Shown: positions 3,214 through 62,890, numbered from the stretch's first letter. The stretch is DNA of 64,000 bases from Anaerolineae bacterium (GCA_017303635.1 JAFLCG010000002.1:156918-220917); one strand, 5' to 3'. Notes: a model not told the origin generated them from the sequence alone. Translations and numbers: made by a program.

Positions 3214-3729
3214 TCAACCATCGAAGACGAACCAGCAGTACGGATTGCGTAAACGCTGGTCATCCAGCACCAGTTCCCGAATAGCATCGGGGAGTTGGTC
3301 GCGCTGCCACTGGCATTCCCGGCGACCGGCTTCCTGGCGTTCCGCTTCCGGGGCAGCGGCCCGCGCTGCCCGGATGGCATAGGCGGCAGCACCCAGGTCA
3401 TGCGCGGCTACATGCGCCACCACCGCAGCCTGACCAGCAGCGAATGCAGCTTCTCTGGCCGCGCCTCTCAAGCTGCGGGCCGCACCCATTGCATGACCGC
3501 CAGCAGCGCGGGCCTGCATCATACTCACTTCACCCCGCACCCAACCGCGCACCTGCTCAAGCGCCCGACGCGGACGATCATCAGCGGGCTGCACCTGTTC
3601 GAACAACGGGAGCACGTGCTCCGCACAAGCGGCCGCCCACAGAGCCAACAGGTGATGATCGGCATCCTGCAGGGTGCCGCCGCGCCGCACAGTAATCAAC
3701 CGGGGGTCAGGGACTTTGCTGAAAATCAT
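3214..3729 (-). CDS. Helical Ala-rich protein, Imm-5-like putative immunity family
   Basis: Start ATG at 3729 (MIFSKV...). The motif HHLLALWAAACAEHVLPLFE..DDRPRRALEQVRGWVRGE recalls the putative-immunity (Imm-5-like) family. The longer track ORF (to 3927) overlaps the upstream gene. Confidence 0.4.
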   Translation of the reverse strand: MIFSKVPDPRLITVRRGGTLQDADHHLLALWAAACAEHVLPLFEQVQPADDRPRRALEQVRGWVRGEVSMMQARAAGGHAMGAARSLRGAAREAAFAAGQAAVVAHVAAHDLGAAAYAIRAARAAAPEAERQEAGRRECQWQRDQLPDAIRELVLDDQRLRNPYCWFVFDG

Positions 3730-3733
3730 GAGC

Positions 3734-4774
3734 CTATAAATGGAGCAGCTTAGCGACAGGAACCTCGCTGGTATCCCACAATTCGAGCCGCCCGTTCTCA
3801 CGTGCGATGGCCAAAAGTGAACCTGCTGGATACCAATCCATCCACACGATTTCATCCTGACTGAGGAGGCGTGCGAGGATTTCCCCGGTGTTGGCGTCAA
3901 TAAAGTGGACTTGCCCGATGAATACACCGATTAAAACTGTTTCATCAGTGTTCCACTTGATGACCTTATAACCGTCCCCTAGTTCATTCAAAATGCTGAA
4001 CCGATTGACTTGCTCCATAGTCTGGGTGTCGTATATCTCGATCTCAGGTGTGCTAAGGGCTAGCCGATCACCTTGCCAATCCATCGCCGGAATTGCCCCA
4101 CTCACAAACAGGGTAGAAAAAGTTCCAGTGGCTATATCCAGGCTAAAGATAGCAGGTAAGTCTAAGCAGAGTGGTTCAACAGATACACACGCATTAGCAA
4201 CTGCCAGCACCTGCCGACTATCGGGACTCCATTCCATCATGATCCAGGGGAATTGATAGTCCGATTCGTAGATCTCGGATGTCCAGTCAGCGGTATCCCA
4301 TATGCGGATTTTGCCGAGCGTTGCATTGAACTGCCTCGGTTGTCGTTCGATCATCTCAGCCAGATATAGTCCATTCGGACTCCATGCGACCGGATTGACA
4401 AAGCGATCTGCCCCACCCACATACAAAGTACGCTCCAACACTACCTCGTTAGTAGTGAGATTCCGCGACCAGATGCGGATGGTGCCATCTCTTGCGCCGG
4501 TAGCAAAGCCAGTACTATCCGGCTTCCATGAGATAAATCCTACCTCACCGCTATGTCCCTCTGGTGTGGCGACTAACTGCAAGCCGGAGTCCATGATCTG
4601 AAGGCCGAGACTGCTGCCAACAGCCAACAATTCCCCATCGGGGCTCCAAACCACGCGATAGATTTTTGATTCGAGAGTGATTTCCACCAATGAGGTCTGG
4701 GCAGAAGAGGTCAGTGGAAAGATCACCAAAAGTAACATGAAGCTCAAAATCAGGGTAAGTCGTCGGAGGGGCAT
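3734..4774 (-). CDS. Secreted WD40/PD40-like beta-propeller protein
   Basis: Signal peptide MPLRRLTLILSFMLLLVIFPLTSSAQT. Repeated WSPDG / WKPDS / GARDGTIRIW / WSPNG / WSPDS blades. Visibly AT-richer than its neighbours. Confidence 0.7.
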   Translation of the reverse strand: MPLRRLTLILSFMLLLVIFPLTSSAQTSLVEITLESKIYRVVWSPDGELLAVGSSLGLQIMDSGLQLVATPEGHSGEVGFISWKPDSTGFATGARDGTIRIWSRNLTTNEVVLERTLYVGGADRFVNPVAWSPNGLYLAEMIERQPRQFNATLGKIRIWDTADWTSEIYESDYQFPWIMMEWSPDSRQVLAVANACVSVEPLCLDLPAIFSLDIATGTFSTLFVSGAIPAMDWQGDRLALSTPEIEIYDTQTMEQVNRFSILNELGDGYKVIKWNTDETVLIGVFIGQVHFIDANTGEILARLLSQDEIVWMDWYPAGSLLAIARENGRLELWDTSEVPVAKLLHL

Positions 4775-4864
4775 AATGCGCCTTCCTGCCGGGATACGAT
4801 CTCACCCTGATTGAAAACCATCGAATAGCTTTAGGCAACCTATGTTTACCCTACGCTAAGCGTA

Positions 4865-5926
4865 TTAGCCCGCTTCCAGCGCGTCTACGATTCTTTCCCC
4901 CACACCCACTGCGCCATAGAAATCCGGGTGGTCAGCGGGCGGAGGAGCCAGAGCTGCGCTGACCGCCGCCTTAAAATCTTCCGGCTCGGTCAGGCGGTTC
5001 CAACCACTATGAACGGTTTCGATCCATTCAGTCGTATCGCGAACGGTCACACCGGGCCGGTGGAGCATGTAGGCTTCTTTTTGCAGGCCGCCGCTGTCCG
5101 TCACCACAATCCGGCAGGCATCCAGCAGCGCGATCATCTCCAGAAAACCGATGGGTTCCAGCGTGCGGACGTTACCCCCAAAGGCCAGGCCAAACTCGGT
5201 CATCATCTTGCCCAGGCGCGGATGCACTGGCAGCACGACCGGCAGTTCCAGCGTGTTGAAGGCGTCGATGATGGCCTTCAGGCGGACGGGATCATCGGTA
5301 TTGCTGGCGCGGTGGATGGTCGCCAGGGCGAACGGTTCACCGGCTTTGAGCTTGGTCTGGTCGAGCAGGCGTGGTTGTTCGTCGCGGGAGCGTGGGACCG
5401 TCTGGGTGACGACATCCACCCGCACATCCCCGACCAGTTTCACACCTTGGGTGATGCCCTCTTTCGCCAGATTATCGACGGCGGCCTGGGTCGGCGGCAG
5501 CAGCAGCGTGCTGATGTGGTCGGTCATGACCCGGTTGACTTCTTCCGGCATTTTGCGGTCATAGCTTCGCAAACCCGCTTCGATATGCGCCACCGGGATA
5601 TGGAGCTTGGCAGCGGCCAACGCCCCGCCGATGGTGGAATTGGTATCGCCAAAGACCACCACCCAATCCGGCTTTTCCCGCAGCATGGCAGCTTCTGCCC
5701 GTGCCAGGATTTCCCCGGTCTGTTTACCGTGCGAGCCGCTGCCCACATCCAGGTTGATCTCCGGCGCGGGAATGCCCAGATCACGGAAAAAGACATCGGA
5801 CATTTTATCGTCGTAGTGCTGGCCGGTATGGACGAGGATTTCAGTGTGGCGACGGCGGATGGCTTTGGTCACAGGCGCGGTCTGAATGAACTCCGGACGC
5901 GCCCCAACGATGGTCATGATTTTCAT
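4865..5926 (-). CDS. wecB: UDP-N-acetylglucosamine 2-epimerase (non-hydrolysing)
   Basis: MKIMTIVGARPEFIQ..., HTGQHYD, GDTNST and HIEAGLRS are the classic WecB/MnaA motifs. Confidence 0.9.
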   Translation of the reverse strand: MKIMTIVGARPEFIQTAPVTKAIRRRHTEILVHTGQHYDDKMSDVFFRDLGIPAPEINLDVGSGSHGKQTGEILARAEAAMLREKPDWVVVFGDTNSTIGGALAAAKLHIPVAHIEAGLRSYDRKMPEEVNRVMTDHISTLLLPPTQAAVDNLAKEGITQGVKLVGDVRVDVVTQTVPRSRDEQPRLLDQTKLKAGEPFALATIHRASNTDDPVRLKAIIDAFNTLELPVVLPVHPRLGKMMTEFGLAFGGNVRTLEPIGFLEMIALLDACRIVVTDSGGLQKEAYMLHRPGVTVRDTTEWIETVHSGWNRLTEPEDFKAAVSAALAPPPADHPDFYGAVGVGERIVDALEAG

Positions 5927-8437: not shown

Positions 8438-8463
8438 GTAGGGACGCGCCGTTGCGCGTCTGC
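8438..8463 (+). repeat. REP-like hairpin with 5' GTAG
   Basis: GTAGGGACGCGCCGTTGCGCGTC. Same family as the elements at 17108, 18176 and 43.7-44.3 kb. Confidence 0.65.
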
Positions 8464-17107: not shown

Positions 17108-17150
17108 GTAGGGACGCCCCGTTGGGCGTCCGCTGTCAACTTGAAATCAG
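17108..17150 (+). repeat. REP-like hairpin with 5' GTAG plus conserved tail, intergenic within the operon
   Basis: GTAGGGACGCCCCGTTGGGCGTCCgctgtcaaCTTGAAATCAG. Confidence 0.7.
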
Positions 17151-23213: not shown

Positions 23214-23795
23214 ATGCTGGCACGCAAACTCGATAACCTCATGACTGAGGCAGCCTATCTCGAATTGGAACGTACCGCAGAGGTTCGCCATCAATGGATT
23301 GATGGCGAAGTTTTTGCAATGGCGGGTGCCTCCGAAGAACACAGTTTGATCGGCAGCAATCTGATTACAACATTGAGTGTTCAAACCCGTTCACGCCGCT
23401 GCCGCGTTCATGGAAGCGACCGCCTCATCAAAACAGGTAATGGCAACTATACCTATGCCGACGTAGCTGCACTGTGTGGTCAACCGGAAATCACGACACC
23501 CCATCCTTCGGCATTGCTAAACCCCAGCCTCATCATTGAAATACTATCACCCTCGACCCAAACCTATGATCGCGGTGACAAGTTCGAACATTACCGCACG
23601 ATCCCATCTCTGATCGATTATGTTCTGGTCGCCCAAAGTAAAATACATATCGAAACTCGCGTCCGGCAAATCGATGGGAGTTGGCTGATTCGGCACTATA
23701 TCACGATGGATTCAACCATACACCTGGAATCAATCGATGCTAGCCTGCTTGTGAGTGAAGTCTATCGCAATATTTTCGACAATGACCCGGAGTAA
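23214..23795 (+). CDS. Uma2 family (DUF820) endonuclease
   Basis: YLELERTAEVRHQWIDGEVFAMAGASEEHS...PSLIIEILSPST...DRGDKFEHY. Confidence 0.8.
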   Translation: MLARKLDNLMTEAAYLELERTAEVRHQWIDGEVFAMAGASEEHSLIGSNLITTLSVQTRSRRCRVHGSDRLIKTGNGNYTYADVAALCGQPEITTPHPSALLNPSLIIEILSPSTQTYDRGDKFEHYRTIPSLIDYVLVAQSKIHIETRVRQIDGSWLIRHYITMDSTIHLESIDASLLVSEVYRNIFDNDPE

Positions 23796-33240: not shown

Positions 33241-35553
33241 ATGCGAATTCTAGCTGATTTCCACATACGCCCACTCCGTATGGCATACATTGTCAATCGC
33301 TCTATCAATCATAGCGATCTGAACTTGATATATAAATATAATACAGAGCATTGGGGAGGTCTTTATAATCTGTTTGTCCCCACAGATGGGGATTCAATAC
33401 GCAATGATTGGCTACATCTGCTTACCTTACACGATCCTGATGTTCTGTTCCTCGTGGGAGAGATTGATAGTGATCTCGTAGACTCACTTTATCTTTTGCT
33501 TCAGCCTTTAGGTATCTTCAATTGGGATGCAGTACTTTCTAATGTTATAGCTGGAAAACCAACAACTGTAGATGGGCTACAAGTTAATGCGATTCTTGAG
33601 AGTATTCTGGCGGAGAATGGTCGACAAAAGTTCGAACAATCTAATATGCGTTATCCTGAATCTTCTGGAGATTTCTCAAAATACTTGGAGATAATCTGTG
33701 GATCATGGCATTCGAATTCAAATTATCTGAAATTCTCTGAAGAATACTTGGGAGCGATCAAAACACCTTTACATCCCAGGACTTTGTCAGATTACCTGTC
33801 AAATCTGGACATGATACATGACCATGTTTTTCCACTTGATATTTCAGCACACCAACTAAAACCATCCTTTGGTCTTCCTTTTGCGCTATCGAATCATTCA
33901 GTTGTTGTGTCTAATGGGCTTATAGATGATTTGTTTCTATATCACGCGATGCGCTGGTCCGGCAGAAGCCGGAATCTCAAATGGTCAAAGATTATTGTCC
34001 CAATACAGTCGCTAGCATCAGATAATGACTATGATGTTTTGGCTAAATGGCTAGGTTCTTCGATTCGAGGAAATACATTTGATTTGGTAAGTCACAGCAT
34101 GGAAATGGATGTTCTCCAGGATATTCGAGAAAAATTACGTGTTTATCTGACTGAACGTTCATCATTAAGCGCGAGAAGTCATTGGCACATTCATATTCGT
34201 AGATGTAACGTGCATATTGCAGTTCCCACAGTTAGTCATCTAAAACGCACCCAACTTGTAGAAAAAAGAGAACAAGTATATTCCTTTGCAATTCCCAAAC
34301 TTAAGTTTGGTGGAGACGGCGGAGATCAGCGTTTTCAAAACAAGCAAATGATCTGTGAAGTAAATCTCTCACCTAAATTTGGAGATAAACGCGCCTATAC
34401 ACCTAGTATGTTTAGCCGTCTAAACTTCCTGCTTTCAGGTTATCCAAGTCTTGAATGGTTCCAACACACCTTTGCTCATATCAGAATTGCTCGTGGACAA
34501 CTTGCTCTGCTTATCGATAAAAATATTGACATGAATAGCATTAGGATCCCAAATGATAAAGTGACAATCGAAACAGCTTGTGAGGATGCTGGTTTTGAGG
34601 TTAAGGCGGATCAGAGGAACTACTACAAGGGGATAATGAGCCTATTAGGTAGCATAGAAAAAGCAAATTTTCTACATAACGCGAACATCCGCCAGATGTT
34701 TTTGGAGCGTAAATTCATAAAGGGAGAAGCCATTACTCATTCAGAGATAATTACTCCACTAAAGCGCAAGCAAGCTGACTCAGCGGATTTCGTTCAACTG
34801 GTTCAAGGATTGGCAGGAAACAAAATACTATTACGAGGTTATCAACTTAAGTGCCCAACCTGCGGTCTAGAATCATGGTACAACTTGGGTCACATGCGCG
34901 AACATATGCTCTGTGAGGGCTGTCAAACTCGATATCAATTGCCCTTGCAGGTTGACTTTGTATATAAGCTAAATCGTCTCTTTACAGATAAATATAATCA
35001 AGGTGTTGTAACTGTATTGCTCTCTCTCCTTCTTCTTAAGCAAACAAGCCGCGATGGGCTGATCTGGCAAGCAGATGTTAACCTAAAGAAAAATGACCAA
35101 GAAGTGGAGATAGATGTTATTGCCATGTGTGATGGGGCATTAATTCTGATCGAATGCAAAAATAGTTTCCTACCCTTTAACGACGGGAAGAATAAGGCTA
35201 ACTACGATATCAAACGCGACAAAGCTGTTAAAGACTTAGTCAATCAACTAGACCGACAAATTGCCATCGCACACAAGTTAGAAGCTCATCTGTTTTTGTT
35301 TGCAACTCTCGAGGATGATGTGCCAGATGAAGTCAAAGACTTCTTACATGAACAAGATTCCAAACATAATAAAATGCGAATCCGGCTAGTTGCTAAATCT
35401 GAGCTAATTGAGGGCAAGTTCAAAATAGATGGTGGAGAGAATAATTTTATATCAATATATGAAATCATTGGCAAAGATGTATTTGTAGAAGCCCATATAG
35501 CAGATGATTGTACCGATATCGAATTTCCTAAAGATGGAATAATTTTCTTTTAA
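33241..35553 (+). CDS. Hypothetical 770-aa protein: large unassigned N-terminal region + C4 zinc ribbon + PD-(D/E)xK / NERD-like nuclease domain
   Basis: A single long ORF in a strongly AT-rich segment. CPTC-x16-CEGC at aa 538-561. EVEIDVIAMCDGALILIECKNS at aa 621-642 gives D625-x12-E638-x-K640. No P-loop or helicase motifs seen. Confidence 0.75.
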   Translation: MRILADFHIRPLRMAYIVNRSINHSDLNLIYKYNTEHWGGLYNLFVPTDGDSIRNDWLHLLTLHDPDVLFLVGEIDSDLVDSLYLLLQPLGIFNWDAVLSNVIAGKPTTVDGLQVNAILESILAENGRQKFEQSNMRYPESSGDFSKYLEIICGSWHSNSNYLKFSEEYLGAIKTPLHPRTLSDYLSNLDMIHDHVFPLDISAHQLKPSFGLPFALSNHSVVVSNGLIDDLFLYHAMRWSGRSRNLKWSKIIVPIQSLASDNDYDVLAKWLGSSIRGNTFDLVSHSMEMDVLQDIREKLRVYLTERSSLSARSHWHIHIRRCNVHIAVPTVSHLKRTQLVEKREQVYSFAIPKLKFGGDGGDQRFQNKQMICEVNLSPKFGDKRAYTPSMFSRLNFLLSGYPSLEWFQHTFAHIRIARGQLALLIDKNIDMNSIRIPNDKVTIETACEDAGFEVKADQRNYYKGIMSLLGSIEKANFLHNANIRQMFLERKFIKGEAITHSEIITPLKRKQADSADFVQLVQGLAGNKILLRGYQLKCPTCGLESWYNLGHMREHMLCEGCQTRYQLPLQVDFVYKLNRLFTDKYNQGVVTVLLSLLLLKQTSRDGLIWQADVNLKKNDQEVEIDVIAMCDGALILIECKNSFLPFNDGKNKANYDIKRDKAVKDLVNQLDRQIAIAHKLEAHLFLFATLEDDVPDEVKDFLHEQDSKHNKMRIRLVAKSELIEGKFKIDGGENNFISIYEIIGKDVFVEAHIADDCTDIEFPKDGIIFF

Positions 35554-43702: not shown

Positions 43703-43916
43703 CGGACGGCATTCTTGCCGTCCCTACGAATGGATTGGTAGTCCGCCGCGCCGCCTCATCAACCCCATATCGCCGCGTGGTAGGATGCCCGTAGGGACGC
43801 GATTATTCGCGTCCGCCCGCCGCCCCATCAACCCCATATCGCCTGATGGTGACCGGCCCCGGACGGCAAGAATGCCGTCCCTACGGATGGGTAGGGACGC
43901 GATTGTTCGCGTCCGC
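43703..43916. repeat. BIME-like cluster of four REP hairpins in alternating orientation upstream of the RayT gene
   Basis: GGACGGCATTCTTGCCGTCCCTAC (43703-43726, inverted), GTAGGGACGCGATTATTCGCGTCC (43790-43813), GGACGGCAAGAATGCCGTCCCTAC (43860-43883, inverted) and GTAGGGACGCGATTGTTCGCGTCC (43890-43913). Confidence 0.8.
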
Positions 43917-43985
43917 CACGCCTCTCAATGCAATCGCCATCTGCAACGAATATACAATCGTATCAACGTTCAGGAGGACGCATGG

Positions 43986-44543
43986 ATGCAATCCCTTCCC
44001 CGGCGCAAATCCCCACGTCTGAAGGAATATGATTACCGTCAGGCTGGAGCCTATTTTGTGACCATCTGCACTGTCAAACGGCTGGAATTATTCGGCACGA
44101 TCAATGATGGGGTAATGGCTCTGTCACCCCTGGGTCAGATTGCCAGCGAAGAATTATTATCCTTGCCTGCCCGCTGGCAATCCATCGATCTGGATGCCTG
44201 TGTGGTCATGCCGAATCATGTTCACGCGATCATTGTGATCGAAGCCGATGCCCAGGACGGCATTCTTGCCGTCCCTACCGACCCATCCGTAGGGACGCGA
44301 TTATTCGCGTCCGCCGCAGACCCATCCGCCACGCCATCATTGGGAAGCATTGTCGGCAATTACAAAGCAGGTGTGACACGCTTCGCCCGATCTGCGAACC
44401 TTATTGATGATGCTCAATCGATCTGGCAAACCCGTTATCATGACCATATCATTCGGTCTGAAGGAAGTCTGAACCACATACGCGCTTATGTCGAACAGAA
44501 TCCGGCGCGGTGGTCAGAGGATACTTTCTATTCTGTAGTCTGA
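43986..44543 (+). mobile_element. REP-associated tyrosine transposase (RayT / IS200-like Y1 HUH transposase)
   Basis: ATG at 43986 follows AGGAGG. YDYRQAGAYFVTICT, HUH motif MPNHVHAII, WQTRYHDHIIRSEGSLNHIRAYVEQNPARW. Confidence 0.8.
44255..44315. repeat. REP doublet (inverted + direct) lying in frame inside the RayT coding sequence
   Basis: GGACGGCATTCTTGCCGTCCCTAC-cgacccatcc-GTAGGGACGCGATTATTCGCGTCCGCC. It encodes DGILAVPTDPSVGTRLFASA between the HUH and Tyr motifs. Confidence 0.8.
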
Positions 44544-52111: not shown

Positions 52112-53629
52112 ATGGCGATACAAGGGCTTCAAGCTGTTGGGCTAGGCAAACGCTTTCCGGGCATCATCGCGCTGGATGATGTGTCGCTGCATCTGCAACC
52201 GGGGCAGGTGATGGCGCTGGTAGGTGCCAATGGGGCCGGGAAAAGCACGCTCATCAAAATATTGACCGGATATTACGACAGCTATGAGGGCCGGATCGAG
52301 ATTGACGGGCAGGGGGTTCAGATTCATCAGCCCAAGGATGCCGCACGAGTCGGTATCCAGGCGGTCTACCAGGAAGTGGATTCCGTCCTGGTGCCCAGCC
52401 TGACCATCAGCGAAAACCTGTTGATGAACCAGCTTGTGACCATCCCAAACCCGCTGCTGAGTTGGTCAGCCCTACATCGGCAGGCGGAAGCCGTACTGGC
52501 CCAGGTGGGGTTGGATCTCGATGTGCGCCGCCGCGTCGAAGATCTCGTCCTGCATGAGAAGCAAATGCTGGTGATTGCGCGGGCGGTCTCCCAACAGGTC
52601 AAATACCTGATCTTTGATGAACCGACGACCTCCCTCAGCCTGCCTGAAGTCGAGCGGTTGTTCGTCATCATCCGGCGGCTGAAAGCGCAGGGTGTGGGTA
52701 TTCTCTACATCTCCCATCGGTTGATGGAGGTTTCGGCGCTGGCGGATGAGATCACCGTCCTGCGAAACGGTCGCAAGATCACACAATTCCCGGTTGCCGA
52801 ATTTGATTTCGCCCGCGTGAGCGAAGCCATGCTCGGCAGCGCCATTCAGGATATCTACCCCGCGAAGGCTGCCAGTCCGCCGGGGGAAGTCGTCCTGACG
52901 GCAACGGACTTGACTCGCCGGGGCAAGCTCAAGGCCGTGAGCCTGGTGGCTCGTCAGGGTGAAATCCTGGGCATTGCCGGGTTGGTTGGAGCCGGTAAAA
53001 CGGAACTGCTGCGGGCACTGTTCGGTGCGGATGGACTCGAGAGCGGTCAGCTTGCCATTGATGGTAAACCCGTCACCTTGACGACTCCCCGGCAGGCAGT
53101 CCAGCAGGGAGTCTATCTGGTGCCGGAGGAACGGCGGTCGCAGGGTGTGCTGCTGGAAGAAAAGATACGCCAGAATATCAGCCTGCCTTTTCTGAGCCAG
53201 TTCAGCCGTATCCTGGGACTCATTGACCAGCTGCGCGAGCGGTCCCACGCCGTCAACCTGATTGATCGGCTGGGGATCACGCCGCCCAATACCGAGGCCG
53301 AAGTCAGCAACCTGAGCGGTGGCAATCAACAGAAGGTTGTCATCGGCAAATGGCTCACCGGCCGACCCCGTGTGGTCATGTTCGACGAAGCCACCCAGGG
53401 CATTGATGTCAAAGCCAAGCAGGATGTGTATGCCATCGCCCGTGAGCTGGCCCATTCGGCAGCCGTCATCTATGCGGCATCCGATATTGACGAGGTGATT
53501 GGGATTGCTGACCGCATCATCGTCATGCACGATGGCGCGATCGTGGCAGCGTTTGAAGCAGATGCCTTTGACCGTAACCTGATTCTGGAATACGCGACTG
53601 GAACGAGAGAGAAAGAAACGCATGACTGA
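52112..53629 (+). CDS. Sugar ABC transporter ATP-binding protein, duplicated ABC domains (RbsA/MglA-like)
   Basis: GANGAGKST, Walker B LIFDEPT, second domain GLVGAGKTE, LSGGNQQK and VMFDEAT. Confidence 0.9.
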   Translation: MAIQGLQAVGLGKRFPGIIALDDVSLHLQPGQVMALVGANGAGKSTLIKILTGYYDSYEGRIEIDGQGVQIHQPKDAARVGIQAVYQEVDSVLVPSLTISENLLMNQLVTIPNPLLSWSALHRQAEAVLAQVGLDLDVRRRVEDLVLHEKQMLVIARAVSQQVKYLIFDEPTTSLSLPEVERLFVIIRRLKAQGVGILYISHRLMEVSALADEITVLRNGRKITQFPVAEFDFARVSEAMLGSAIQDIYPAKAASPPGEVVLTATDLTRRGKLKAVSLVARQGEILGIAGLVGAGKTELLRALFGADGLESGQLAIDGKPVTLTTPRQAVQQGVYLVPEERRSQGVLLEEKIRQNISLPFLSQFSRILGLIDQLRERSHAVNLIDRLGITPPNTEAEVSNLSGGNQQKVVIGKWLTGRPRVVMFDEATQGIDVKAKQDVYAIARELAHSAAVIYAASDIDEVIGIADRIIVMHDGAIVAAFEADAFDRNLILEYATGTREKETHD

Positions 53630-54686
53630 CCTGGCCCCATCAGCATCCATCCCGCCTGAACCCCGCTCCGAGCATATTCGGGGGCTGATCTACGACTTCA
53701 TCATCAAGTACGGCATGTTGGTCGCCATCGGCATTCTGATTCTGTTCTTCAGCACGCAGAACGAGGCCTTCCTCACGCTGAATAACCTGCTGCTCATCGC
53801 CCGTGCGGTCTCCATCCTGTGTATTGTCGCTATCGGTGTGACCATCTCCGTCAGCGTCGATGGCTTTGATGTGTCTGTCGGTGCCGTCACGGGCTTATCC
53901 GTGCTGCTCTCCACCTCGCTGATGGTCATCTGGAATGTGGAGTGGTATCTCGCCATCCTCATCACGCTGGGGGCCGGGCTGCTGGTGGGGCTGATCAACG
54001 CTTTCTTCATCATCAAGCTGCGTATTCCGGATTTGCTGGCGACGCTGGGGATGTTGTATCTGGCGCAGGGTGCCCAGCTCATGCTCACCCAGGGTGAGTC
54101 CGTCTTTCGCGGGATGTTCAACCCCTGGGCGACCGAGCGCGTGCAGACCACGGGCGATATTACCGATGCCTTCAAACAGATCGGGCAGGGATTCGTCTTT
54201 GGCAGTGAGGGTTTTAACGGGATTCCCATCCCCATCATCATCATGCTGGTGATTGCCATCAGCGTGCATGTCTTCCTGCAATACACCCGCTGGGGACGGA
54301 TGTTTTACGCGGTGGGCGGCAACCGGGAGGCAGCACGGCTTTCCGGCGTTCCCATCCATCGCGTGCGCCTGTTGGCTTACCTCCTGAGCGCACTGCTGGC
54401 GACCATCGCCGGGATTGTGCTGGCCTCGCGCATCGGTTCCGGCGCCATCCGGGCGGGTGACCCCTATCTGCTGGATGCCGTCGCGGCCACCTTCTTCGGC
54501 TTCGCGGTGCTGGGTGCGCGCCGCCCGAATGTCTTTGGCACCGTGATTGGAGCCCTGTTCGTCGGCATCATGCTGAACGGGCTGACCATGATGGATGTCG
54601 AGTGGTTCTTCCAGGACTTCATCAAAGGGTTCGTGCTGATTGCCTCGCTGGCGATGAGCTTCTTCCTCGTCAAGCGCACCCGCTAG
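53622..54686 (+). CDS. Sugar ABC transporter permease (RbsC-like)
   Basis: About 9-10 TM segments, FYAVGGNREAARLSGV motif, 8-nt overlap with the ATPase gene. Confidence 0.9.
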   Translation: MTDLAPSASIPPEPRSEHIRGLIYDFIIKYGMLVAIGILILFFSTQNEAFLTLNNLLLIARAVSILCIVAIGVTISVSVDGFDVSVGAVTGLSVLLSTSLMVIWNVEWYLAILITLGAGLLVGLINAFFIIKLRIPDLLATLGMLYLAQGAQLMLTQGESVFRGMFNPWATERVQTTGDITDAFKQIGQGFVFGSEGFNGIPIPIIIMLVIAISVHVFLQYTRWGRMFYAVGGNREAARLSGVPIHRVRLLAYLLSALLATIAGIVLASRIGSGAIRAGDPYLLDAVAATFFGFAVLGARRPNVFGTVIGALFVGIMLNGLTMMDVEWFFQDFIKGFVLIASLAMSFFLVKRTR

Positions 54687-54712
54687 GGCAGATACTCACC
54701 ATAAATTGTGTC

Positions 54713-54734
54713 GTGGACGCGCTGTTGCGCGTCC
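54713..54734. repeat. Degenerate REP-like hairpin; likely shared terminator of the permease gene and the ancestral carB end
   Basis: GTGGACGCGCTGTTGCGCGTCC. Confidence 0.5.
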
Positions 54735-54780
54735 GAAACATACGATGACCTGCTTTAGGTTGGTTCAGTGACGAACGACT

Positions 54781-54836
54781 ACCCCCAGTGATGCGTCTGC
54801 AAGCTCCGCACGCGCAACGGCTTCTGCCGCACCGAC
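54781..54836 (-). repeat. Orphan copy of the last 18 codons + stop of carB (direct repeat, copy 1)
   Basis: 54 of 56 nt are identical to 56285-56340. The minus strand reads [21 protein letters not shown]. Confidence 0.9.
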
Positions 54837-54872
54837 TTTCAGTTCGATCCAGCTGTCGATATGGTTTCATCT

Positions 54873-55784
54873 TTAGGGCACCGGATCGGCAAACCACCCG
54901 ACCACCTCATTTGCTGCCAGATTAAGCCGATAGCCGACCCATTCGTTCAGATCGAGGATGTAGACAAAGCCTTCATCATATTGACCAATACTCACCGCAA
55001 CTTGCTCCGCGGAGGGTGAGATAGCAAATTGAAAGCGGGTATCAATACAAGTGTCATAGATTTGTTGTAGCGCAGAGTCAAATACATAAACCGGGTGTGG
55101 CCAGGTATCGTAATCGGCAAACACTCGCATAGGAATGCCATCGTTGTTCGTATTGGCAGGGGAGTTCGTAAGCAAACCCCAGATCACATTGGCTGACTGT
55201 GAAAATTCCGCTGCTTGATCTGTATCAACAGGTAGTATTTCAGCAGTGAAGGGGTTGTAAATGTAGTCTCCAAGCCGTCGGTCTACTGCTGAGGCAGGCA
55301 CTATCGCAAAGCGTTGATTGTCTAGCCAATAGATGCCGCTGAACAATGCTGTGCGGGAAATGCCAGCAAAAGCATTTTCTTCATATGGGACCCGGTAGGA
55401 TTCAGTAGATGGAATTGTGGAAACGACTTTGATGCCGGTCGCACGATAAACCGAGTTGACCATCCCATACGAGAGCAGTCTACCAACAGGTATTGCAAAC
55501 CACTGTCCATCCGGGGAAAACGAGCCGGAACTAGCGAACTCTGATTGGCTATCGAAGGCGATGTAATAGCGCGTGGGGAAATCAGATCGGAAGCCGTGTA
55601 CACCATCTCTAAGTCGATAGGTGACAATGGTTCCCTCAAATGTCCATTCATCAGGCGGTTCCCGCAGGTCGGTGAGGCAGCGTTCGACGATGGGGTATGG
55701 CTCCGGTGTGGTTTCCTGAGCATGAGTGTGGTGAATAGCAAGTGTGGTAATGACTGAAAACAGGATCAATATCAGGTGGCGCAT
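54873..55784 (-). CDS. Secreted hypothetical protein (AT-richer), weak PD40-like motif
   Basis: Signal peptide MRHLILILFSVITTLAIHHTHAQE and FSPDGQWFAI. No catalytic motif recognised. Confidence 0.6.
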   Translation of the reverse strand: MRHLILILFSVITTLAIHHTHAQETTPEPYPIVERCLTDLREPPDEWTFEGTIVTYRLRDGVHGFRSDFPTRYYIAFDSQSEFASSGSFSPDGQWFAIPVGRLLSYGMVNSVYRATGIKVVSTIPSTESYRVPYEENAFAGISRTALFSGIYWLDNQRFAIVPASAVDRRLGDYIYNPFTAEILPVDTDQAAEFSQSANVIWGLLTNSPANTNNDGIPMRVFADYDTWPHPVYVFDSALQQIYDTCIDTRFQFAISPSAEQVAVSIGQYDEGFVYILDLNEWVGYRLNLAANEVVGWFADPVP

Positions 55785-55877
55785 ACTAATTTATCCGAAG
55801 CTGAGATGTGTTGATACGCTTATCGTAGCATCGGATAACCAATCACAACCTGACGTTTGGGCAACGCGAAAGAAACG

Positions 55878-56141
55878 TTATGCGCTCAGGGGGATAACCC
55901 GAACAGGGGTACCAAGCCGCCGCATGAAGTCCTGGCAGATGTCCCAGGTCAGCGGGAACGCAGCCGTATCGGCAGCGGCCAAGTGCGCGATCACATCCCG
56001 CACGAGCGCCGTATCCGATTCGGGTTCGATCCAGCCGTCGATGAAAAACGTCTCTGCCCAATCGACCAGTTGGGCGAGGGTTATCTCACCGTTGAGGTAG
56101 GCGAGGAGTTGGGTACTGACTGTGTGGCGGGTGAGTTTCAT
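55878..56141 (-). CDS. Small acidic hypothetical protein (87 aa)
   Basis: The ORF has a plausible start. No family recognised with confidence; its helical, acidic, Trp-rich composition resembles small immunity-type proteins. Confidence 0.45.
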   Translation of the reverse strand: MKLTRHTVSTQLLAYLNGEITLAQLVDWAETFFIDGWIEPESDTALVRDVIAHLAAADTAAFPLTWDICQDFMRRLGTPVRVIPLSA

Positions 56142-56211
56142 GGTTTAGTCCTCATCACGAGGTTTGATAATTTGATGTCCGGTATCAAGCTGAGTACAAA
56201 TAACATTTGTG

Positions 56212-56239
56212 ACAAAACGGGCGATCCGGTGGATCGCCC
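56212..56239 (-). terminator. Rho-independent terminator downstream of the present carB stop
   Basis: The minus strand reads GGGCGATCC-acc-GGATCGCCC followed by GTTTTGT. Confidence 0.6.
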
Positions 56240-56282
56240 TCCAAATCTGTATTCAATCAGGCTCCGGCTGGATACCCACCAA

Positions 56283-59200
56283 TTACCCCCAGTGATGCGT
56301 CTGCAAGCTCCGCACGCGCAGGGGCTTCTGCCGCACCGACCGGATCGCCTGCACCGCGGCTGCCGCGCCCGTCAGCGTGGTAAAGATCGGTACGCCATAC
56401 GCCACCGCTGCCCCGCGAATCGCGTAGCCATCCGCGTGCGATTGCCCGCCGCGGGGCGTGTAGATAATCAGGTCAATCTCGCCCTGCCGGATCGAGTCGA
56501 TCACAGTGGGGGCGTCTTCGCTGGGCTTGCGGACGACCTCCGCCGTGATGCCCACCTCGCCCAGCGCCTTGGCCGTACCGACCGTCGCCACCAGCTTGAA
56601 CCCTAGCTTGACCAGATCCTGCGCCAGCTTGACCATCGCGTTCACGTCATATGGGTTGACGCTCACCAGCACCGTCCCACTTTGGGGGAGTGGCGCATTG
56701 GCGGCCATCTGCGCCTTGGCAAAGGCATGACCAAAGCTGGAGGCGTGACCCATCACCTCGCCGGTCGAGCGCATCTCCGGCCCCAACCGCGCATCCACGC
56801 CGGGGAACTTCTGGAAAGGCAGCACCACCTCCTTGATGAAGAAGCCATCCACCGGTGGCTCTTCCTCAAAGCCCAACTCGGCTAGAGTCTTCCCAGCAGC
56901 GATCTGCGCGGCATACCCCGGCAGCGGCGCCCCCACCGCCTTGCTCACATACGGCGAGGTCCGGCTGGCCCGCGGATTGACCTCCAGCACATAGACGATC
57001 TCATCCCGCAGCGCGAACTGGATGTTGAACAAGCCCTTGATCTTCAGCGCCTTGCCGATGCGCTCGGTGTATTCGCGGATGATCTCGATGTGGTACAGCG
57101 CCACCTTATACGGCGGCATCACGCAGGCCGAGTCCCCGGAATGCACACCGGCTTCTTCGATCTGCTCCATAATGCCGCCGATGGTGACGTTCTCGCCGTC
57201 GCAGAGTGCATCCACGTCCAGCTCAAAGGCGTCATCCAGGAAGCGGTCAATCAGCACCGGATGCCCGTTCCATTCGATGTGTTTCTCAATCCAGCCCAGC
57301 AGTTCGGCATCATCGAAGACGATACCCATGCCGCGACCGCCCAGCACATAACTCGGCCTGACCAGCACCGGGTAGCCGATGCGGTTAGCAACTGCCAGCG
57401 CCTCCGCCTGATTGAGCGCCGTGCCGCCGTCCGGCTGCGGGATATCCAGTTCAGCCAGCACCGCATTGAACCGCCGCCGGTCCTCCGCCAGATCAATCGT
57501 GTCATAGGACGTGCCGACGATGGGCGCACCGGCTTCATGCAGTTGCCGGGCGATATTCAGCGGGGTTTGACCTCCGAACTGCACCAGCACGCCATCCGGC
57601 TTTTCCGCCTCGATGATGTTCATCACATGCTCGAACGTCAGCGGCTCAAAGTACAGTCGGTCGGCGGTGTCGTAATCCGTACTGACCGTCTCCGGGTTAC
57701 AGTTGATCATGATGGTCTCATAGCCCAACTGCTTGAGCGCGAAGCAGGCATGGACGCAGCAGTAATCGAACTCGATGCCCTGCCCGATGCGGTTGGGTCC
57801 GCCGCCCAGCACGATCATCTTGGGTTTGTCGGTCGGCTCGGATTCATCGCCTTCTTCATAGGTCGAATACAGGTAGGGCGTGTGCGCCTCGAACTCCGCC
57901 GCGCAGGTATCCACCCGGTAGTAACTGGGAATGACGCCCAGCGCCTTGCGTCGCTCCCGCACCTGCATCTCCGGCACATTCAAGAGCTTGGCGATGTGCG
58001 CGTCGGTATAGCCATAGCGTTTGAGCTTGCGGAAGTCCGCCGCATCCAGCCGATCCAGCGTCAGCCCCTTGCGGAGGATAGTGTGCTGGATGCGGATGAT
58101 ATCCGCCATATGCTGCACGAACCAGGGATCAAAGGCGGTCGTCTTGACCACCTCCTCCGGGGACATGCCCTCGAACAGGGCCGACGCCACCTGGAACAAG
58201 CGCTGCGCCGTCGGTACCCCGATCACCTCGGCGCGCGGATCAGCCGGCTTGGCACCGAAGCCCGTCATGCCGATGTCCAACCCGGTGATGGCCTTCTGCA
58301 GCGCCTCTGGGAAGGTGCGCCCAATGGACATGACCTCGCCGATGGCCTTCATCTGCGGCCCCAGCACCGGATCGACTCCCTGGAACTTCTCGAAGTTCCA
58401 GCGCGGGATTTTGACCACCACGTAATCCAGCGACGGTTCAAAGCTGGCGGGTGTCACGCGGGTGATGTCGTTGGGGATTTCATCCAGCGTGAAGCCCACT
58501 GCCAGCAGTGCCGCGATCTTGGCGATGGGGAAGCCGGTCGCCTTGCTCGCCAGCGCCGATGACCGTGACACGCGCGGGTTCATCTCGATCACAAAGACCT
58601 CGCCGGTCGTCGGGCTGATGGCAAACTGCACGTTCGCGCCGCCCGTCGCCAGCCCGACCCGATCCAGCACCACCCGCGCCATATCGCGCAGGCGCTGTAA
58701 CTCGCGGTCGGTGAGGGTCTGCGCCGGGGCGACCGTGATGCTGTCCCCGGTGTGGACGCCCATCGGGTCAAGGTTCTCAATCGAACACACCACCACAAAG
58801 TTCCCCTTGTGGTCGCGCATGACCTCGACTTCAAATTCCTTCCAACCGAGCAGACTCCGGTCGATCAGCACCTGCCCGACCGGACTCAGCTTGATGCCCC
58901 GCGCCGCGATCTCTCGCAGGTCGGCCTCGTTGTAGGCCACCCCGCCGCCGGATCCGCCCAGGGTGAAGGATGGGCGCACCAGCACCGGATACTCCAGCAC
59001 CTGCGCCGCCCGCACCGCCGCCTCCACGTTATCGACTACCTCGCTCGGCGGTGATTTGAGACCGACCTCGGTCATGGCGTCCTTGAACAACTGCCGATCT
59101 TCCGCGAGGCGGATGCTTTCCAGATTCGCGCCGATCAGTTCGATTTGGTGCTTTTCCAGCGTGCCGCGTTCGTGCAGCGCCAGCGCCAGATTGAGCGCCG

Positions 59201-59480
59201 TCTGCCCGCCGACCGTCGGCAGGATGGCATCCGGTTTTTCCTGCTCGATGATGCGCTCGACCATCTCCGGCGTCAGCGGCTCAACATAGGTGGCATCGGC
59301 GAATTCGGGATCGGTCATGATGGTCGCCGGGTTGGAGTTGACCAGCACGATCCGGTAGCCTTCGCGGCGCAGCACCTTGCAGGCCTGCACGCCGGAGTAG
59401 TCGAACTCGCAGCCCTGCCCGATCACAATCGGGCCAGAGCCAATCACCAGAATCGTGTGTAGATCAGTGCGTTTGGGCAT
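56283..59480 (-). CDS. carB: Carbamoyl-phosphate synthase large subunit
   Basis: [30 protein letters not shown], duplicated ATP-grasp halves (second: [17 protein letters not shown]) and a C-terminal MGS-like domain. 1065 aa. Confidence 0.95.
56285..56340 (-). repeat. carB 3'-terminal 56 nt (direct repeat, copy 2; the functional gene end)
   Basis: See 54781-54836. The two differences are synonymous (CCC/CCG Pro, CTG/TTG Leu). The stops, which lie outside the 56 nt, are TAA here and TAG in copy 1. Confidence 0.9.
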
Positions 59481-59757: not shown

Positions 59758-61062
59758 TCACTGCGAAAGGGTAATTACATAAACACCAGCTTGTGAGGGA
59801 TCAAGATTTGAATCGAGGCTGGCTAGGTAGAAGACAAGAGTATGAACTCCATCTGAAGTAATTAGGAGGTTGGTCGTGAAATTCTCTGAATTGCCCATAG
59901 CTAGTGCAAAAATTGGAACACTATCTGGCCCGTACACTGTGAATCCAAGAGGATTTGTCCCACTTTGCCGTTGAATTTGAATGCTGTAAGTATCTCCTGC
60001 ATTTGCCTCGACAATACTTGTGTATACAATGTCCTGTGCGATAGCAACTGTTAGTGGTGCATCAAGCGACAGAGGTAAATTGATCCCACCATCAGTTTCT
60101 GCCAACGGAATCCCGGCCGGTAAATTGATTTCTTCAGCAGGAGAAGGTGTGCCAGATTGAATATCAACCCCAGTTACCGAACTGGTAGTAGTATTTGGAG
60201 TAGAAGATGATGCAAGCTCAGGTTGTTCTACTAAGTCAACGAACGCAGATGTTCCGGCCTGAATTTCGACATTATCGGGTGTTATACAACCAATAGAGAG
60301 CGTATAATTTCCTCCTTGATTGACATCATGGCGTGAAGTTACACCAGCAACGATTATGAAGTACACACCAGTGGTTGGTAATCCAGATGTCTGAATTGAA
60401 TCTATCGTCGCACGATTGTAATAGGTATCAGGTTCAATAATGAATCTTTCATTATGACTTCCAAAGTTCTTGATTACTCCAGTATCAATTTTGAGGTCGA
60501 AACTGTTCTGAATTACTTCTACTACTGCCTTTAGCACAGTTCCTCTCTCCAAGGTTAAGTAATATCTATGATAAGGTTCATTGGGTGCAAACTCGTTTTC
60601 ATAAACCGAACCACATTCACTTGCGACAACACTCCGATTACTCGAAACCACTTCGCCGTTGGCTTTAACACAACTAATGTTCAGCTCAAATGATCCTCCT
60701 TGATCTGTACTTCCACTGACAATTATTTTGTAGTCGCCAGGAACAAACACTTCACGAGTGTTATACACATGGTAGACGGCAGCGTTATAGTAGACATCTA
60801 GTTCATCAAGAACAGTGGCGTTGGGCGATACAATGGAAAAGTCCACTCTTAAATTACCACCGGTTACTCTTATGTCAGCGATCATAGAGTCCTTTACGGC
60901 TAGGTTAACTGAGAATTCTTGAACCTCTCGATTTCGATTCATTACACCTGCATACACCTGCCCACATTCAAGATGCTGTTGGGCAATTACACTTTGGGTT
61001 GCCCCCATGAAACTTATCATCAACACAAGAATTACTAGCAGTCGATAGGAATGCATTTGCAT
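59758..61062 (-). CDS. Secreted protein with three PPC-like (pre-peptidase C-terminal type) beta-sandwich modules
   Basis: ATG at 61062 follows GGAG, then a signal peptide. Repeated modules run from ECG.VY to G(G/N).(F/Y).L.I.C (ECGQVYAG...GGSFELNISC; ECGSVYENE...GGNYTLSIGC). AT-rich. Confidence 0.6.
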   Translation of the reverse strand: MQMHSYRLLVILVLMISFMGATQSVIAQQHLECGQVYAGVMNRNREVQEFSVNLAVKDSMIADIRVTGGNLRVDFSIVSPNATVLDELDVYYNAAVYHVYNTREVFVPGDYKIIVSGSTDQGGSFELNISCVKANGEVVSSNRSVVASECGSVYENEFAPNEPYHRYYLTLERGTVLKAVVEVIQNSFDLKIDTGVIKNFGSHNERFIIEPDTYYNRATIDSIQTSGLPTTGVYFIIVAGVTSRHDVNQGGNYTLSIGCITPDNVEIQAGTSAFVDLVEQPELASSSTPNTTTSSVTGVDIQSGTPSPAEEINLPAGIPLAETDGGINLPLSLDAPLTVAIAQDIVYTSIVEANAGDTYSIQIQRQSGTNPLGFTVYGPDSVPIFALAMGNSENFTTNLLITSDGVHTLVFYLASLDSNLDPSQAGVYVITLSQ

Positions 61063-61082
61063 TGTCGTCTCCAAAACCAATT

Positions 61083-62210
61083 CTAAGGGCAGCCAAGCGG
61101 CGGACGGGAAAAGTCATCGTGTGTTACCCAACCAGTATTGTTGTCATACACGATCTGATACCACATTACTCCATTGCGCTCCTCACTATCAAGCACATCA
61201 ACCTCTGTGGAAGGTTCAATAGGAGGGGCCATTGTTCGTGAAGCAGGTGCAACTCTGACTATCGAGATTTTAGGCAAATCGCTATCGACAATCATGGCAG
61301 TACATCTATCGACTATCACAGCGACAACTAACGTTGAAGTGATGATAGGCGTCAAAGTAATGGAAGGTGTTGGCGTAATAGCAAGTGCGGTCTGCGTAAA
61401 ATAACTACTTGCCGTGCTTGCTGCATTATTGATTGCGATTTGCGCCTCATTGGTGCCAACAAAAATGGTAGCTGCAAGATCGGGAGTAAATGTGTAAGTT
61501 GACGTGATCGAAGGCGTAGAAGTTGGGTGTGCAGTCGGTGATGGTTCAGCTGATGTAGATGTAACTTCAATTACTGTTTGGGTGACAGAAGGTGTAGACG
61601 TACTTGTGGGAATGAATGGAATAGGTGTAGTTGCTGCAAGGATGGGTTGAACAATTAAAGTTGGAGCTATTGCTGTTGGCAAGATGACATCATTGGTTGG
61701 TAAAGGGCGCATAATGAACGCTGAAATGATAAGACCTACAAAACCAAGTATTCCTATAGCGATAGTGATTGTGCGGTCAACTCTCGACACTTCTGTTCTG
61801 GTAATTTCTGTTTGGGGAGGCTTGTTAGAGTCATCTTGCTCAACTGCTATTGCATCTACTTGCAAAATTCTATGTATTGCGGTGTAAACTGGGTCTGGTA
61901 TTGATGGAAGCTTTGTCCCTCGTAAATCAATGTAGTTGAATTTCCATGATCCAATCCAAGGTTCACCCTCTATCAATAGGCCAATTATTGGAATCTTGAG
62001 TGCCTCTGCTAATTTATGTTCTTCTTTAACCCACTGAGACTCGTATGAAGCACTCGACTGAACAAGCAACATAACCGAAGACTCATGAAGTGCGGCAGCG
62101 GTATTGGTTACGTCACGAAGTACATCGAAGCCCTTGACTTGGAGTTCTCGTTCGAGCTTTCCTGCGAAATGCTCATTTTCCTGACTGTAGCTGATGAATA
62201 TGCGAGCCAT
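61083..62210 (-). CDS. TIR domain - TM - Thr/Pro/Ser-rich linker - SH3b-like domain protein
   Basis: ATG at 62210 (MARIFISYSQENEHFAGKLERELQVKGFDV...SSASYESQWVKEEHKLA = TIR_2 pattern with the W-x-x-x-E glutamate). TM segment ITIAIGILGFVGLIISAFIM. C-terminus GVMWYQIVYDNNTGWVTHDDF. Confidence 0.7.
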   Translation of the reverse strand: MARIFISYSQENEHFAGKLERELQVKGFDVLRDVTNTAAALHESSVMLLVQSSASYESQWVKEEHKLAEALKIPIIGLLIEGEPWIGSWKFNYIDLRGTKLPSIPDPVYTAIHRILQVDAIAVEQDDSNKPPQTEITRTEVSRVDRTITIAIGILGFVGLIISAFIMRPLPTNDVILPTAIAPTLIVQPILAATTPIPFIPTSTSTPSVTQTVIEVTSTSAEPSPTAHPTSTPSITSTYTFTPDLAATIFVGTNEAQIAINNAASTASSYFTQTALAITPTPSITLTPIITSTLVVAVIVDRCTAMIVDSDLPKISIVRVAPASRTMAPPIEPSTEVDVLDSEERNGVMWYQIVYDNNTGWVTHDDFSRPPLGCP

Positions 62211-62354
62211 TACAGTTGCCCTAAGGACCATCAAGCTAGATATTGGAATTGCTGACATAAACATGCGGAATGGAAACACTATAGCCTGAGTTGCAAATCA
62301 TTGCTATCAATCAAATATTAAAGAAAAGTAAACCCTTCTGCTGCCGTACTTACT

Positions 62355-62439
62355 CCCCTTTCCAGCGACCCGACTCCCAGATAGTCTCCCTTTCCCATCA
62401 AGTAAGGGTCGCGGCGGGAGAGGGGTTGGGGGTGAGGCG
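62355..62439 (+). repeat. MITE-like inverted-repeat element, copy flanking the TIR island (right)
   Basis: cccctttccagcgacccgactc...gggtcgcggcgggagaggggttgggggtgaggcg. Same orientation as 59525-59615. Confidence 0.7.
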
Positions 62440-62890
62440 TCTGTGCGGCACACTTAGAAACACGCTGGCGCAGCTTGTTGATCCCAACTTCAGGGACGCG
62501 GAGGGGTGAGGCGTCTGTGCAGCACGCTTAGAAGCGTGCTGGCAGAGGTTGTTTATCCCAACTTCAGGGACGCGGAGGGGTGAGGCGTCTGTGCGGCACG
62601 CTTAGAAACGCACTGGCGCAGCTTGTTTATCCCAACTCCAGGGACGCGGAGGGGTGAGGCGTCTGTGCAGCACGCTTGGAAACGTGCTGGCAGAGGTTGT
62701 TTATCCCAACTTCAGGGACGCGGAGGGGGTGAGGCGATCCTGCGGCACGCTTGGAAACGTGCTGGCGCCGGTTGTTTATCCCAACTTCAGGGACGCGGAG
62801 GGGTGAGGCGTCTGTGCGGCACGCTTAGAAACACGCTGGCGCAGCTTGTTGATCCCAACTTCAGACACGCGGAGGGGTGAGGCGGTACTG
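62431..62890 (+). repeat. 74-bp tandem repeat, 6 full units + 1 diverged partial unit
   Basis: GGTGAGGCG unit starts at 62431, 62505, 62579, 62653, 62728, 62802 and 62876 (period 74, with one of 75). Units alternate between two subtypes. Confidence 0.9.

Follow-up and report, generated by a model that had tools for sequence, protein, structure and literature searches.

The window analyzed in this study is a 64-kb stretch of DNA from an uncultured Chloroflexota/Anaerolineae bacterium of activated sludge; one homologue is named "Aggregatilineales bacterium" at NCBI. Between carB, the gene for the large subunit of carbamoyl-phosphate synthase, and an ABC permease gene, the window carries a 1.5-kb segment which is one cassette (E3) of a strain-variable array, in which direct copies of the final 34-77 nt of carB mark off each cassette. 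Read in this way, the window has the array in its smallest form, with a single cassette. Insertion into the 3' end of a gene, with a replacement end being supplied, is textbook knowledge for integrase-bearing prophages and integrative and conjugative elements (ICEs). At carB, a single housekeeping protein gene, this footprint is repeated up to four times, in cassette-sized units and with no recombinase in reach, in a host phylum that is poorly studied and abundant in wastewater plants.

The two copies in the window (Table 1) were recovered by a repeat search as a direct repeat of 57 nt, 54780-54836 versus 56284-56340, identical at 55/57 positions. The 37-nt core of the repeat occurs exactly twice in the 64 kb, and a second copy was obtained in none of 100 dinucleotide shuffles, by which chance similarity is rejected. 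On the minus strand both copies translate to the same 18 residues followed by a stop, TAA in the active copy at the end of carB and TAG in the other copy, hereafter called the orphan, and the two mismatches between them are synonymous (CCC/CCG and CTG/TTG). In 80 Anaerolineae relatives carB natively ends in the tail motif KPLxVRSLQxHH, and the tail is thus native carB sequence; the carB orthologue in contig L001, from a related haplotype, has the domains CPSase_L_D1/D2/D3 and MGS. Because the orphan of L001 retains TGATTGGTGG, i.e., 10 extra repeat bases, the ancestral repeat must have been at least 67 nt long. The shared segment runs from TCGG to ATTGGTGG, and its end after ATTGGTGG agrees between the L001 orphan and contig X12, a cassette-less form described below. 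A preliminary description of this stretch had given a duplication of 56 bp (54/56), one base shorter than that found here, and had correctly read it as the minus-strand end of carB with its stop and with synonymous mismatches only. It had also named an orphan lying inside a longer carB pseudogene as the sign of a segmental duplication; no further carB similarity was found around the orphan.

Tail copies in related haplotypes

Related assemblies were reached by look-up of the 87-aa, 179-aa and 303-aa proteins; exact look-up of carB gave no match, and that of the permease matched haplotype A and nothing else. The repeat is present in four independently assembled haplotypes (A-D) of this activated-sludge Anaerolineae species. 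Haplotype A consists of the window and an independent ENA contig assembled at k=141 (L005/L089). Haplotype B (L001-L006, including GCA_002455305.1) has flanks that are 96-97% identical and the same duplication, with an intact 84-aa gene and a 305-aa allele of the 303-aa gene, and its orphan is separated from the permease gene by 1082 nt with a convergent 179-aa gene, as compared with 90 nt in the window. A 179-aa-like gene (85% nucleotide identity to the L001 copy) also occurs in L104 (JGI 3300021518), where a short repeat of the GACAGATTA type and a TPR gene come after it and no carB tail is close by; a cassette gene is thus also found outside the carB array. In haplotype D (L105/L106, two metagenome-assembled genomes (MAGs) at NCBI), carB is 93% identical and the duplication is present, together with a 295-aa allele and another flank beyond the orphan. 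The haplotype D orphan (L105) lacks a stop codon and differs by +1 nt, and an IS3-type transposase orfA (HTH_Tnp_1) lies about 280 nt past its tail (L105 5989-6273, GCA_020051655.1).

Haplotype C is represented by two contigs, L091 and L103, which overlap over 606 nt at 100% and combined hold four direct tail copies; L091 was the sole match when metagenome contigs were scanned with a degenerate tail pattern, and L103 holds the copies X and Y and ends at Z. The order is carB, tail, the 84-, 87- and 305-aa genes, tail Z, a 184-aa gene (reverse), tail Y, a ParE/RelE-like pair of 77 and 133 aa, a PP2C gene (reverse), tail X, 24 nt, and the permease gene, i.e., three cassettes with the 84-, 87- and 305-aa genes, the 184-aa gene, and the ParE/RelE-like pair plus PP2C, respectively. 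Copy X has only the 3' 34-38 nt of the tail, copy Z has 57 nt and starts at TCGG as in the window, and copy Y has about 77 nt, reaching about 20 nt further into carB and with three transitions. The X and Y junctions were reproduced by loose ends in an independent run. These different 5' limits of X, Y and Z indicate independent joints and not one fixed site.

The active and Z copies differ by synonymous changes, which would fit two formerly working gene ends, and the older orphans have nonsynonymous changes, a frameshift or no stop. The repeat is old and predates four lineages differing by 3-7%. The left flank of Z, i.e., the end of the 303/305/295-aa gene and a short patch, is the same in all four haplotypes, and the right flanks of the orphans differ in every haplotype (F0 in the window, F1 in L001, F2 in L091, and a fourth type in L105). 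The right flank in the window is homologous to the flank of X and that in L001 to the flank of Y (p<0.003). The likeness of the X, Y and Z arms in MAFFT alignments was lost in shuffle tests, in which only the pairs L001-orphan/Y and window-orphan/X were significant. The X-type signature GGGCGGCGGAGC is located mid-tail in the L105 orphan, and the window orphan has a standard middle joined to an X-type flank. CATCAT is found in every sequenced C and D copy except the most distal one, X, and CATCAC in both copies of A and both of B; the 19-mer beside the orphan is decayed in haplotype C. Mosaic tails and co-variation of this kind indicate crossovers and conversion between tail copies at varying positions, and varying switch points are the behaviour of homologous recombination and not that of a fixed-site recombinase. 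The single insertion pictured in the preliminary description is supported, but the description missed the array of up to four tails, the recombination between copies and the TCGG junction with a truncated 87-like gene.

This junction is found in the patch between the stop of the 303-aa gene and the orphan, where 18/19 positions of the 19-mer are identical to codons ~33-39 of the 87-aa open reading frame (ORF; 56024-56042). At the same place in two other runs, 16 nt after a divergent 303-like gene, there begins a longer 87-like sequence whose start lies in the 19-mer (joint 56036->54872); the patch is thus the vestige of a 5'-truncated 87-like copy. TCGG at the left junction is present in both partners, the 87-like gene and the carB tail, and the junction looks like an illegitimate, microhomology joint. 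A joint in runs X8 and X10 that "goes back" was considered as an excision circle and rejected, since its source is a divergent haplotype and it is no circular form of the present insert. Some contigs of runs X7 and X8 have, at window position 54828, the end of the 303-aa gene, the patch and just the first 9 nt of the orphan tail, followed by unrelated DNA of at least 395 nt (CTGCACCTCACGGCAATTGATGG...); this breakpoint inside the tail marks a further haplotype.

As proposed in the preliminary description, carB without the insert was looked for in relatives, and such forms were found among Logan contigs of public runs, which are assembled at k=31, shorter than the 57-nt repeat. Contig X12 of a freshwater run (1805 nt, 58x), which was read through its 30-nt loose ends, contains 1411 nt of carB (92% identical) and continues through a single tail into TGAGTG..GATTGGTGGCTGGTGGTCAGTGG, which is F1, the flank beyond the orphan in L001; this cassette-less form is robust. 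Contigs X15 (194 nt, 6.3x) and X19 (411 nt, 3.1x) have the carB body, one tail, F0 and the end of the permease gene, with exactly 1504 nt being skipped. This is how an empty or excised site would look, and a chimera is possible as well, with k=31, a 57-nt repeat, low depth and an insert-bearing strain co-present. The insert plus one tail copy is supported by these comparisons as a presence/absence unit that would be bounded exactly by the repeat. F0 is probably the former carB/permease intergenic DNA; the old border between the two genes that the preliminary description had placed at this flank with its hairpin is plausible. The hairpin is real (perfect, 8 bp, 54715-54734), and F0 is joined directly to carB and one tail in X15 and X19. 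The joint 54689->56276 in X13 was rejected as an empty site, since just 46 nt of it fall within the repeat and it fits an L001-type orphan. In X12 and X7 the left flank of Y, a tail and the start of F3/E3 follow each other, possibly the opposite cassette order, in low-coverage k=31 contigs that could also be chimeras.

A carB-end repeat within 10 kb of carB was found in 0/80 Anaerolineae relatives. The carB C-terminus, used to scan genome contigs, matched only relatives that are 54-74% identical in amino acids and have no synteny, no tail repeat, and no 87-aa, 303-aa or permease genes nearby; these relatives are too distant to be used as empty sites.

Possible mechanisms of cassette gain

Recombination anchored in carB, homologous at one end and illegitimate at the other, and requiring no integrase, is tentatively favoured here as the explanation of the locus, and is ranked somewhat higher than site-specific accretion. 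As the last conserved gene before a hypervariable region, carB would provide a one-sided homologous anchor for incoming DNA of sister strains, and the other end would be closed by an illegitimate microhomology joint, either in a homology-facilitated manner or, where such a joint had first produced a circle, by Campbell-type crossover of that circle. Where the joint falls inside the recipient carB end, the incoming DNA would supply the functional end and the resident end would stay as an orphan; only events of this kind would keep carB intact and therefore stay visible. The orphans would then act as portable homology, through which RecA-type crossovers and gene conversion could delete, reorder and homogenize cassettes. 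This integrase-free process is preferred because the limits of the copies differ, the truncated gene is joined at a microhomology, the switch points vary, the two youngest copies differ only synonymously, and no recombinase or site structure was found. Homology-facilitated illegitimate recombination in natural transformation was reportedly described by de Vries and Wackernagel in 2002. The carB locus resembles it in having one end anchored in a conserved gene, the other at a microhomology of 3-10 nt, and no recombinase of its own; unlike the usual outcome, in which recipient DNA is replaced or deleted, the duplicated anchor end at carB would be a special case.

Several points weigh against this explanation. 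Three independent illegitimate joints in the last 80 nt of one gene are a lot for chance, even if an intact carB is selected for, and a dedicated recombinase would account for the recurrence more simply; recombinases were sought in only 64 kb of the genome and in the short contigs of relatives. The TCGG microhomology has only 4 nt and is weak evidence, and a route of DNA uptake such as natural competence would be needed. Moreover, the cassette-less and reordered Logan contigs at 2-6x could be chimeric, as they were assembled with k=31 across the 57-nt repeat; X12 at 58x alone is robust. The co-variation rests on one site.

Site-specific integration with tandem accretion is the next possibility, a serious one that is nevertheless held to be somewhat less probable than the carB-anchored process. 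The cassettes would be, or derive from, small elements with the carB end in their attP that were integrated by a tyrosine or serine recombinase acting in trans or located on a lost neighbour, the active end being attL and the orphan attR. Repeated insertion would have built up the array, and the cassettes would be mobilizable in cis or in trans without an integrase of their own. The footprint is the classical one, i.e., direct repeats of which one completes the target gene, the gene end being replaced and the old end displaced as an orphan; the up to four tandem copies have unrelated cargo between them, including a toxin-antitoxin pair, and cassette-less forms and possibly the opposite cassette order exist, the reordered forms being low-coverage k=31 contigs. 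However, no integrase, excisionase or transposase was found in the insert or in the ORFs of the cassettes E1 and E2 (Pfam, NCBIfam and PADLOC), nor by Pfam among the window ORFs of at least 150 aa, which are ordinary chromosomal genes, and the related loci had no integrase. The preliminary description had stated the lack of an integrase for the insert, and this can now be extended to the 64-kb window and the related loci; its reading of an insertion at the carB end, by which this end was replaced and the former one displaced as an orphan, is sustained, while a decayed or trans-mobilized site-specific element is unproven. The cassettes, of just 0.8-1.7 kb, contain no remnant of integration or transfer modules. 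The arms beside the tail copies are not significantly alike between cassettes, and the tail has no inverted-repeat core above chance: as a dif-like or tyrosine-recombinase core, the best 11-nt arms (6-8 nt spacer) match at 7/11, which was equalled in 724/1000 shuffles. The mosaic tails switch at differing positions, at variance with a fixed crossover point. Searches of viral contigs gave neither the tail pattern nor a relative of the 87-aa gene, and the absence of a carB-end repeat from the 80 relatives also speaks against this reading.

Known systems resemble the carB locus in part. The prophage e14 and phage 21 enter the 3' end of icd in Escherichia coli and supply a replacement end. As in these, the functional end at carB would come from incoming DNA, and the displaced orphan has mainly synonymous differences; unlike these prophages, which have 15-40 kb, their own integrase by the att site and one insertion, the carB locus is an array. 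No report of carB as an integration site was found in a literature search. The closest documented case is that of the ssrA islands of Dehalococcoides (Chloroflexota), which are in tandem between 20-bp repeats of the gene 3' end; 15 islands are without an integration module and 16 have a serine recombinase module (DsiB/DsiA), and the islands, of many kb, are inserted at a fixed point and share a conserved motif of 15 bp on the element side (McMurdie et al. 2011, PMC3146451). This same-phylum precedent, in which the 3' end of a single-copy essential gene is likewise directly repeated between tandem strain-specific units, some without a recombinase, favours site-specific accretion. At carB, in contrast, the gene is a protein gene, the repeats of 34-77 nt have differing limits, no recombinase or conserved arms were found, and the units have 0.8-1.7 kb. 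A similar concept of accretion was described for cis-mobilizable elements (CIMEs) of the ICESt1/ICESt3 family at fda of Streptococcus thermophilus, which are integrase-less units between att sites (Pavlovic 2004, Bellanger 2011, as cited in PMC5704250). The carB units are also in tandem, flanked by attL/attR-like repeats that include a housekeeping gene end, and without integration or transfer genes. CIMEs are recognizable decay products of ICEs or integrative and mobilizable elements and co-occur with integrase-bearing relatives, whereas no such relative or remnant was found at carB, neither among the 80 relatives nor as a tail in viral contigs; the sole mobile-element gene close to the array is the IS3-type orfA of L105.

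What is chiefly left unexplained is why tails were duplicated at least three times at one gene, and for this reason some weight is kept on a further reading, which is regarded as unlikely. The carB end would be the shared recombination site of an undescribed integron-like cassette platform of Aggregatilineales-type Chloroflexota, with cassettes of 0.8-1.7 kb and 1-3 genes, every one of them terminated by a copy of the final 34-77 nt of carB, that would be inserted, excised and reordered by an unlinked recombinase or a dedicated host pathway and always restore the essential gene. Integron arrays and clusters of attC sites lacking integron-integrases (CALINs) likewise have small cassettes of 1-3 genes, including a toxin-antitoxin pair, which are repeat-separated and strain-variable. 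They differ from the carB locus, where intI is absent, the repeated sequence is the copied end of a gene and has no attC hairpin (z about -0.6 to -0.7), genes lie in mixed orientations, and a terminator is included in one of the cassettes. An integron attC was rejected in folding tests, in which the tail with or without flanks folded no better than shuffles (z -0.6 to +0.4), and intI/attI was not found at the array head; the array starts in carB and the window is without an integrase.

It is also conceivable, and clearly less probable still, that no insertion occurred at all. In this case the 84-, 87- and 303-aa genes would be native neighbours of carB, the orphan would be a templated patch made by template switching or end-joining at a fragile junction, and the cassette-less forms would be later deletions. 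The 19-nt patch from the 87-aa gene and the 57-67-nt patch from carB both originate from within 1.5 kb, in direct orientation and with few filler bases, the junction past the orphan differs in every strain, and the canonical carB terminator is on the side of the "insert", all of which would be expected. However, the two further carB-end copies with other boundaries between unrelated cassettes of haplotype C would not be explained, and the 19-mer is a vestige of a longer 87-like copy in other strains rather than fresh filler. The synonymous differences between the active and Z copies are those expected of two once-working ends, and in the 92% relative (X12) carB abuts F1 directly. Finally, an assembly artefact or chance similarity has a negligible probability, even with a metagenome-type source and repeats able to cause mis-joins, as the shuffles gave no second copy, the arrangement recurs in independent k=127-141 assemblies (L001 and L005; k exceeding the repeat) and in NCBI MAG contigs, and Logan unitigs of 5 runs break exactly at both copies with the shared 37-mer at doubled depth.

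If the integrase-free process is correct, a conserved gene beside a variable region would become a self-perpetuating insertion hot spot, with each event adding portable homology; if a trans-acting recombinase is involved, the locus would represent a cassette system of a new kind. In both cases the repeat is a convenient marker with which activated-sludge Anaerolineae can be typed to strain and gene flow among them followed.

Genes of the insert and its surroundings

Table 1. Features of the carB-permease interval, in window coordinates
Feature	Position	Strand	Remarks
carB (carbamoyl-phosphate synthase large subunit)	56283..59480	-	1065-aa ORF; last conserved gene before the variable region
Active repeat copy	56276..56340	-	last 18 carB codons, TAA at 56283-56285 and ~8 nt past the stop (TAATTGGTGG); repeat proper 56284-56340
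Intrinsic-terminator-like hairpin and T tract	56209..56239	-	9-bp stem with 7 GC pairs; conserved in L001, L091 and L105; beside the active copy, towards the insert
Remnant 3' end of the 84-aa gene (partner of the 87-aa ORF)	56142..56190	-	from comparison with L001 and L091
87-aa acidic ORF	55878..56141	-	real gene of a conserved small-protein family; 111 homologous clusters
303-aa signal-peptide ORF	54873..55784	-	conserved ends, hypervariable middle between strains
Junction patch, 303-aa stop to orphan	54837..54872	-	19-mer at 54842-54860; joined to the tail at TGAAAG|TCGG
Orphan carB-end copy	54779..54836	-	18 codons and TAG at 54779-54781
Flank F0	54687..54778	.	contains the hairpin (perfect, 8 bp) at 54715-54734; homology to the flank of the most distal copy, X, in L103
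ABC permease (BPD_transp_2)	53622..54686	+	last gene of a sugar-type ABC operon; converges on the array, conserved far border

On the carB-sense strand the insert consists of the terminator, a remnant of the 84-aa gene (~45 nt), the 87-aa gene, the 303-aa signal-peptide gene, the 36-nt patch and the orphan tail. The terminator inside the insert, noticed previously, was recovered by a scan as a hairpin at 56219-56239 with a T tract. About 224 nt of the 84-aa gene are deleted in the window as compared with L001 and L091 (junction 56186/56191); the gene is lost in the window and in L105 and intact in L001 (9743-9997) and L091. In other genera the pair of 84 and 87/88 aa, with a 3-nt spacer, is found at 66-73% identity adjoining a LiaF-TM gene, and the order in sister genera is LiaF-TM, 84, 88 and a 478-aa gene, a stable context. 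Judged by this conservation, the pair is a stable chromosomal module and not typical mobile cargo; as a two-gene module it is uncharacterized. For the 87-aa protein a four-helix fold is predicted with confidence (predicted local distance difference test (pLDDT) 94.6), and comparison of the model with PDB gave no significant match (best E 0.69). Colicin D immunity protein was tried as a structural neighbour and rejected as not significant (template modelling score 0.52), and the ORF has no match in Pfam, NCBIfam or PADLOC.

A secreted TolB/PD40-like beta-propeller is probably encoded by the 303-aa gene; the protein model (pLDDT 67) matches TolB propellers at E ~1e-5. At least seven alleles with 36-57% identity exist, all in this lineage. 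Between strains with 97%-identical flanks the N- and C-terminal parts are nearly identical and the middle is replaced (56% overall), a pattern that resembles diversifying exchange in a protein that is secreted or at the surface. The GC content of the gene is 0.47-0.50, against 0.60-0.68 in carB. An AT-richer secreted-protein gene and an 87-aa acidic ORF, as given in the preliminary description, are thus both present, but a second secreted-protein gene upstream of carB is equally GC-poor and low GC is therefore no specific sign of foreign origin. The genes of the insert had no PADLOC match, and an Rfam search of 54500-56500 gave nothing above threshold.

The hairpin in F0 belongs to a small intergenic family in the window (8 matches versus 0.7 expected) of the form GGACGCGC-NGTT-GCGCGTCC, with intergenic sites at 54715-54734, 8442-8461 and 17112-17131, one of them with compensatory changes; three related copies (GGACGCGATTATTCGCGTCC) at 43795, 43895 and 44293 lie inside an ORF (43785-44543).

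On the far side of carB, window positions 59758-62279 contain a GC-poor 440-aa secreted ORF without a Pfam match and a 398-aa TIR_2+SH3 ORF with weak ThsB-like PADLOC matches, in place of which L001 has a 322-aa TIR_2 and PA-IL lectin ORF (4822-5790). A tandem unit of 74 nt at 62429-62884 (6.1 copies, 88% match) is located upstream of the TIR-domain gene, and L001 has more copies of it (~3634-4410). Since strain variation is found on this side too, carB sits between two variable regions. Elsewhere in the window, an ORF for an Imm5-like immunity protein is next to, or overlaps with, one for a WD40 propeller (3214-4774), and a NERD-domain ORF (33241-35553) and a Uma2 endonuclease-like ORF (23214-23795) were found; these are scattered conflict-type genes in an otherwise housekeeping region.

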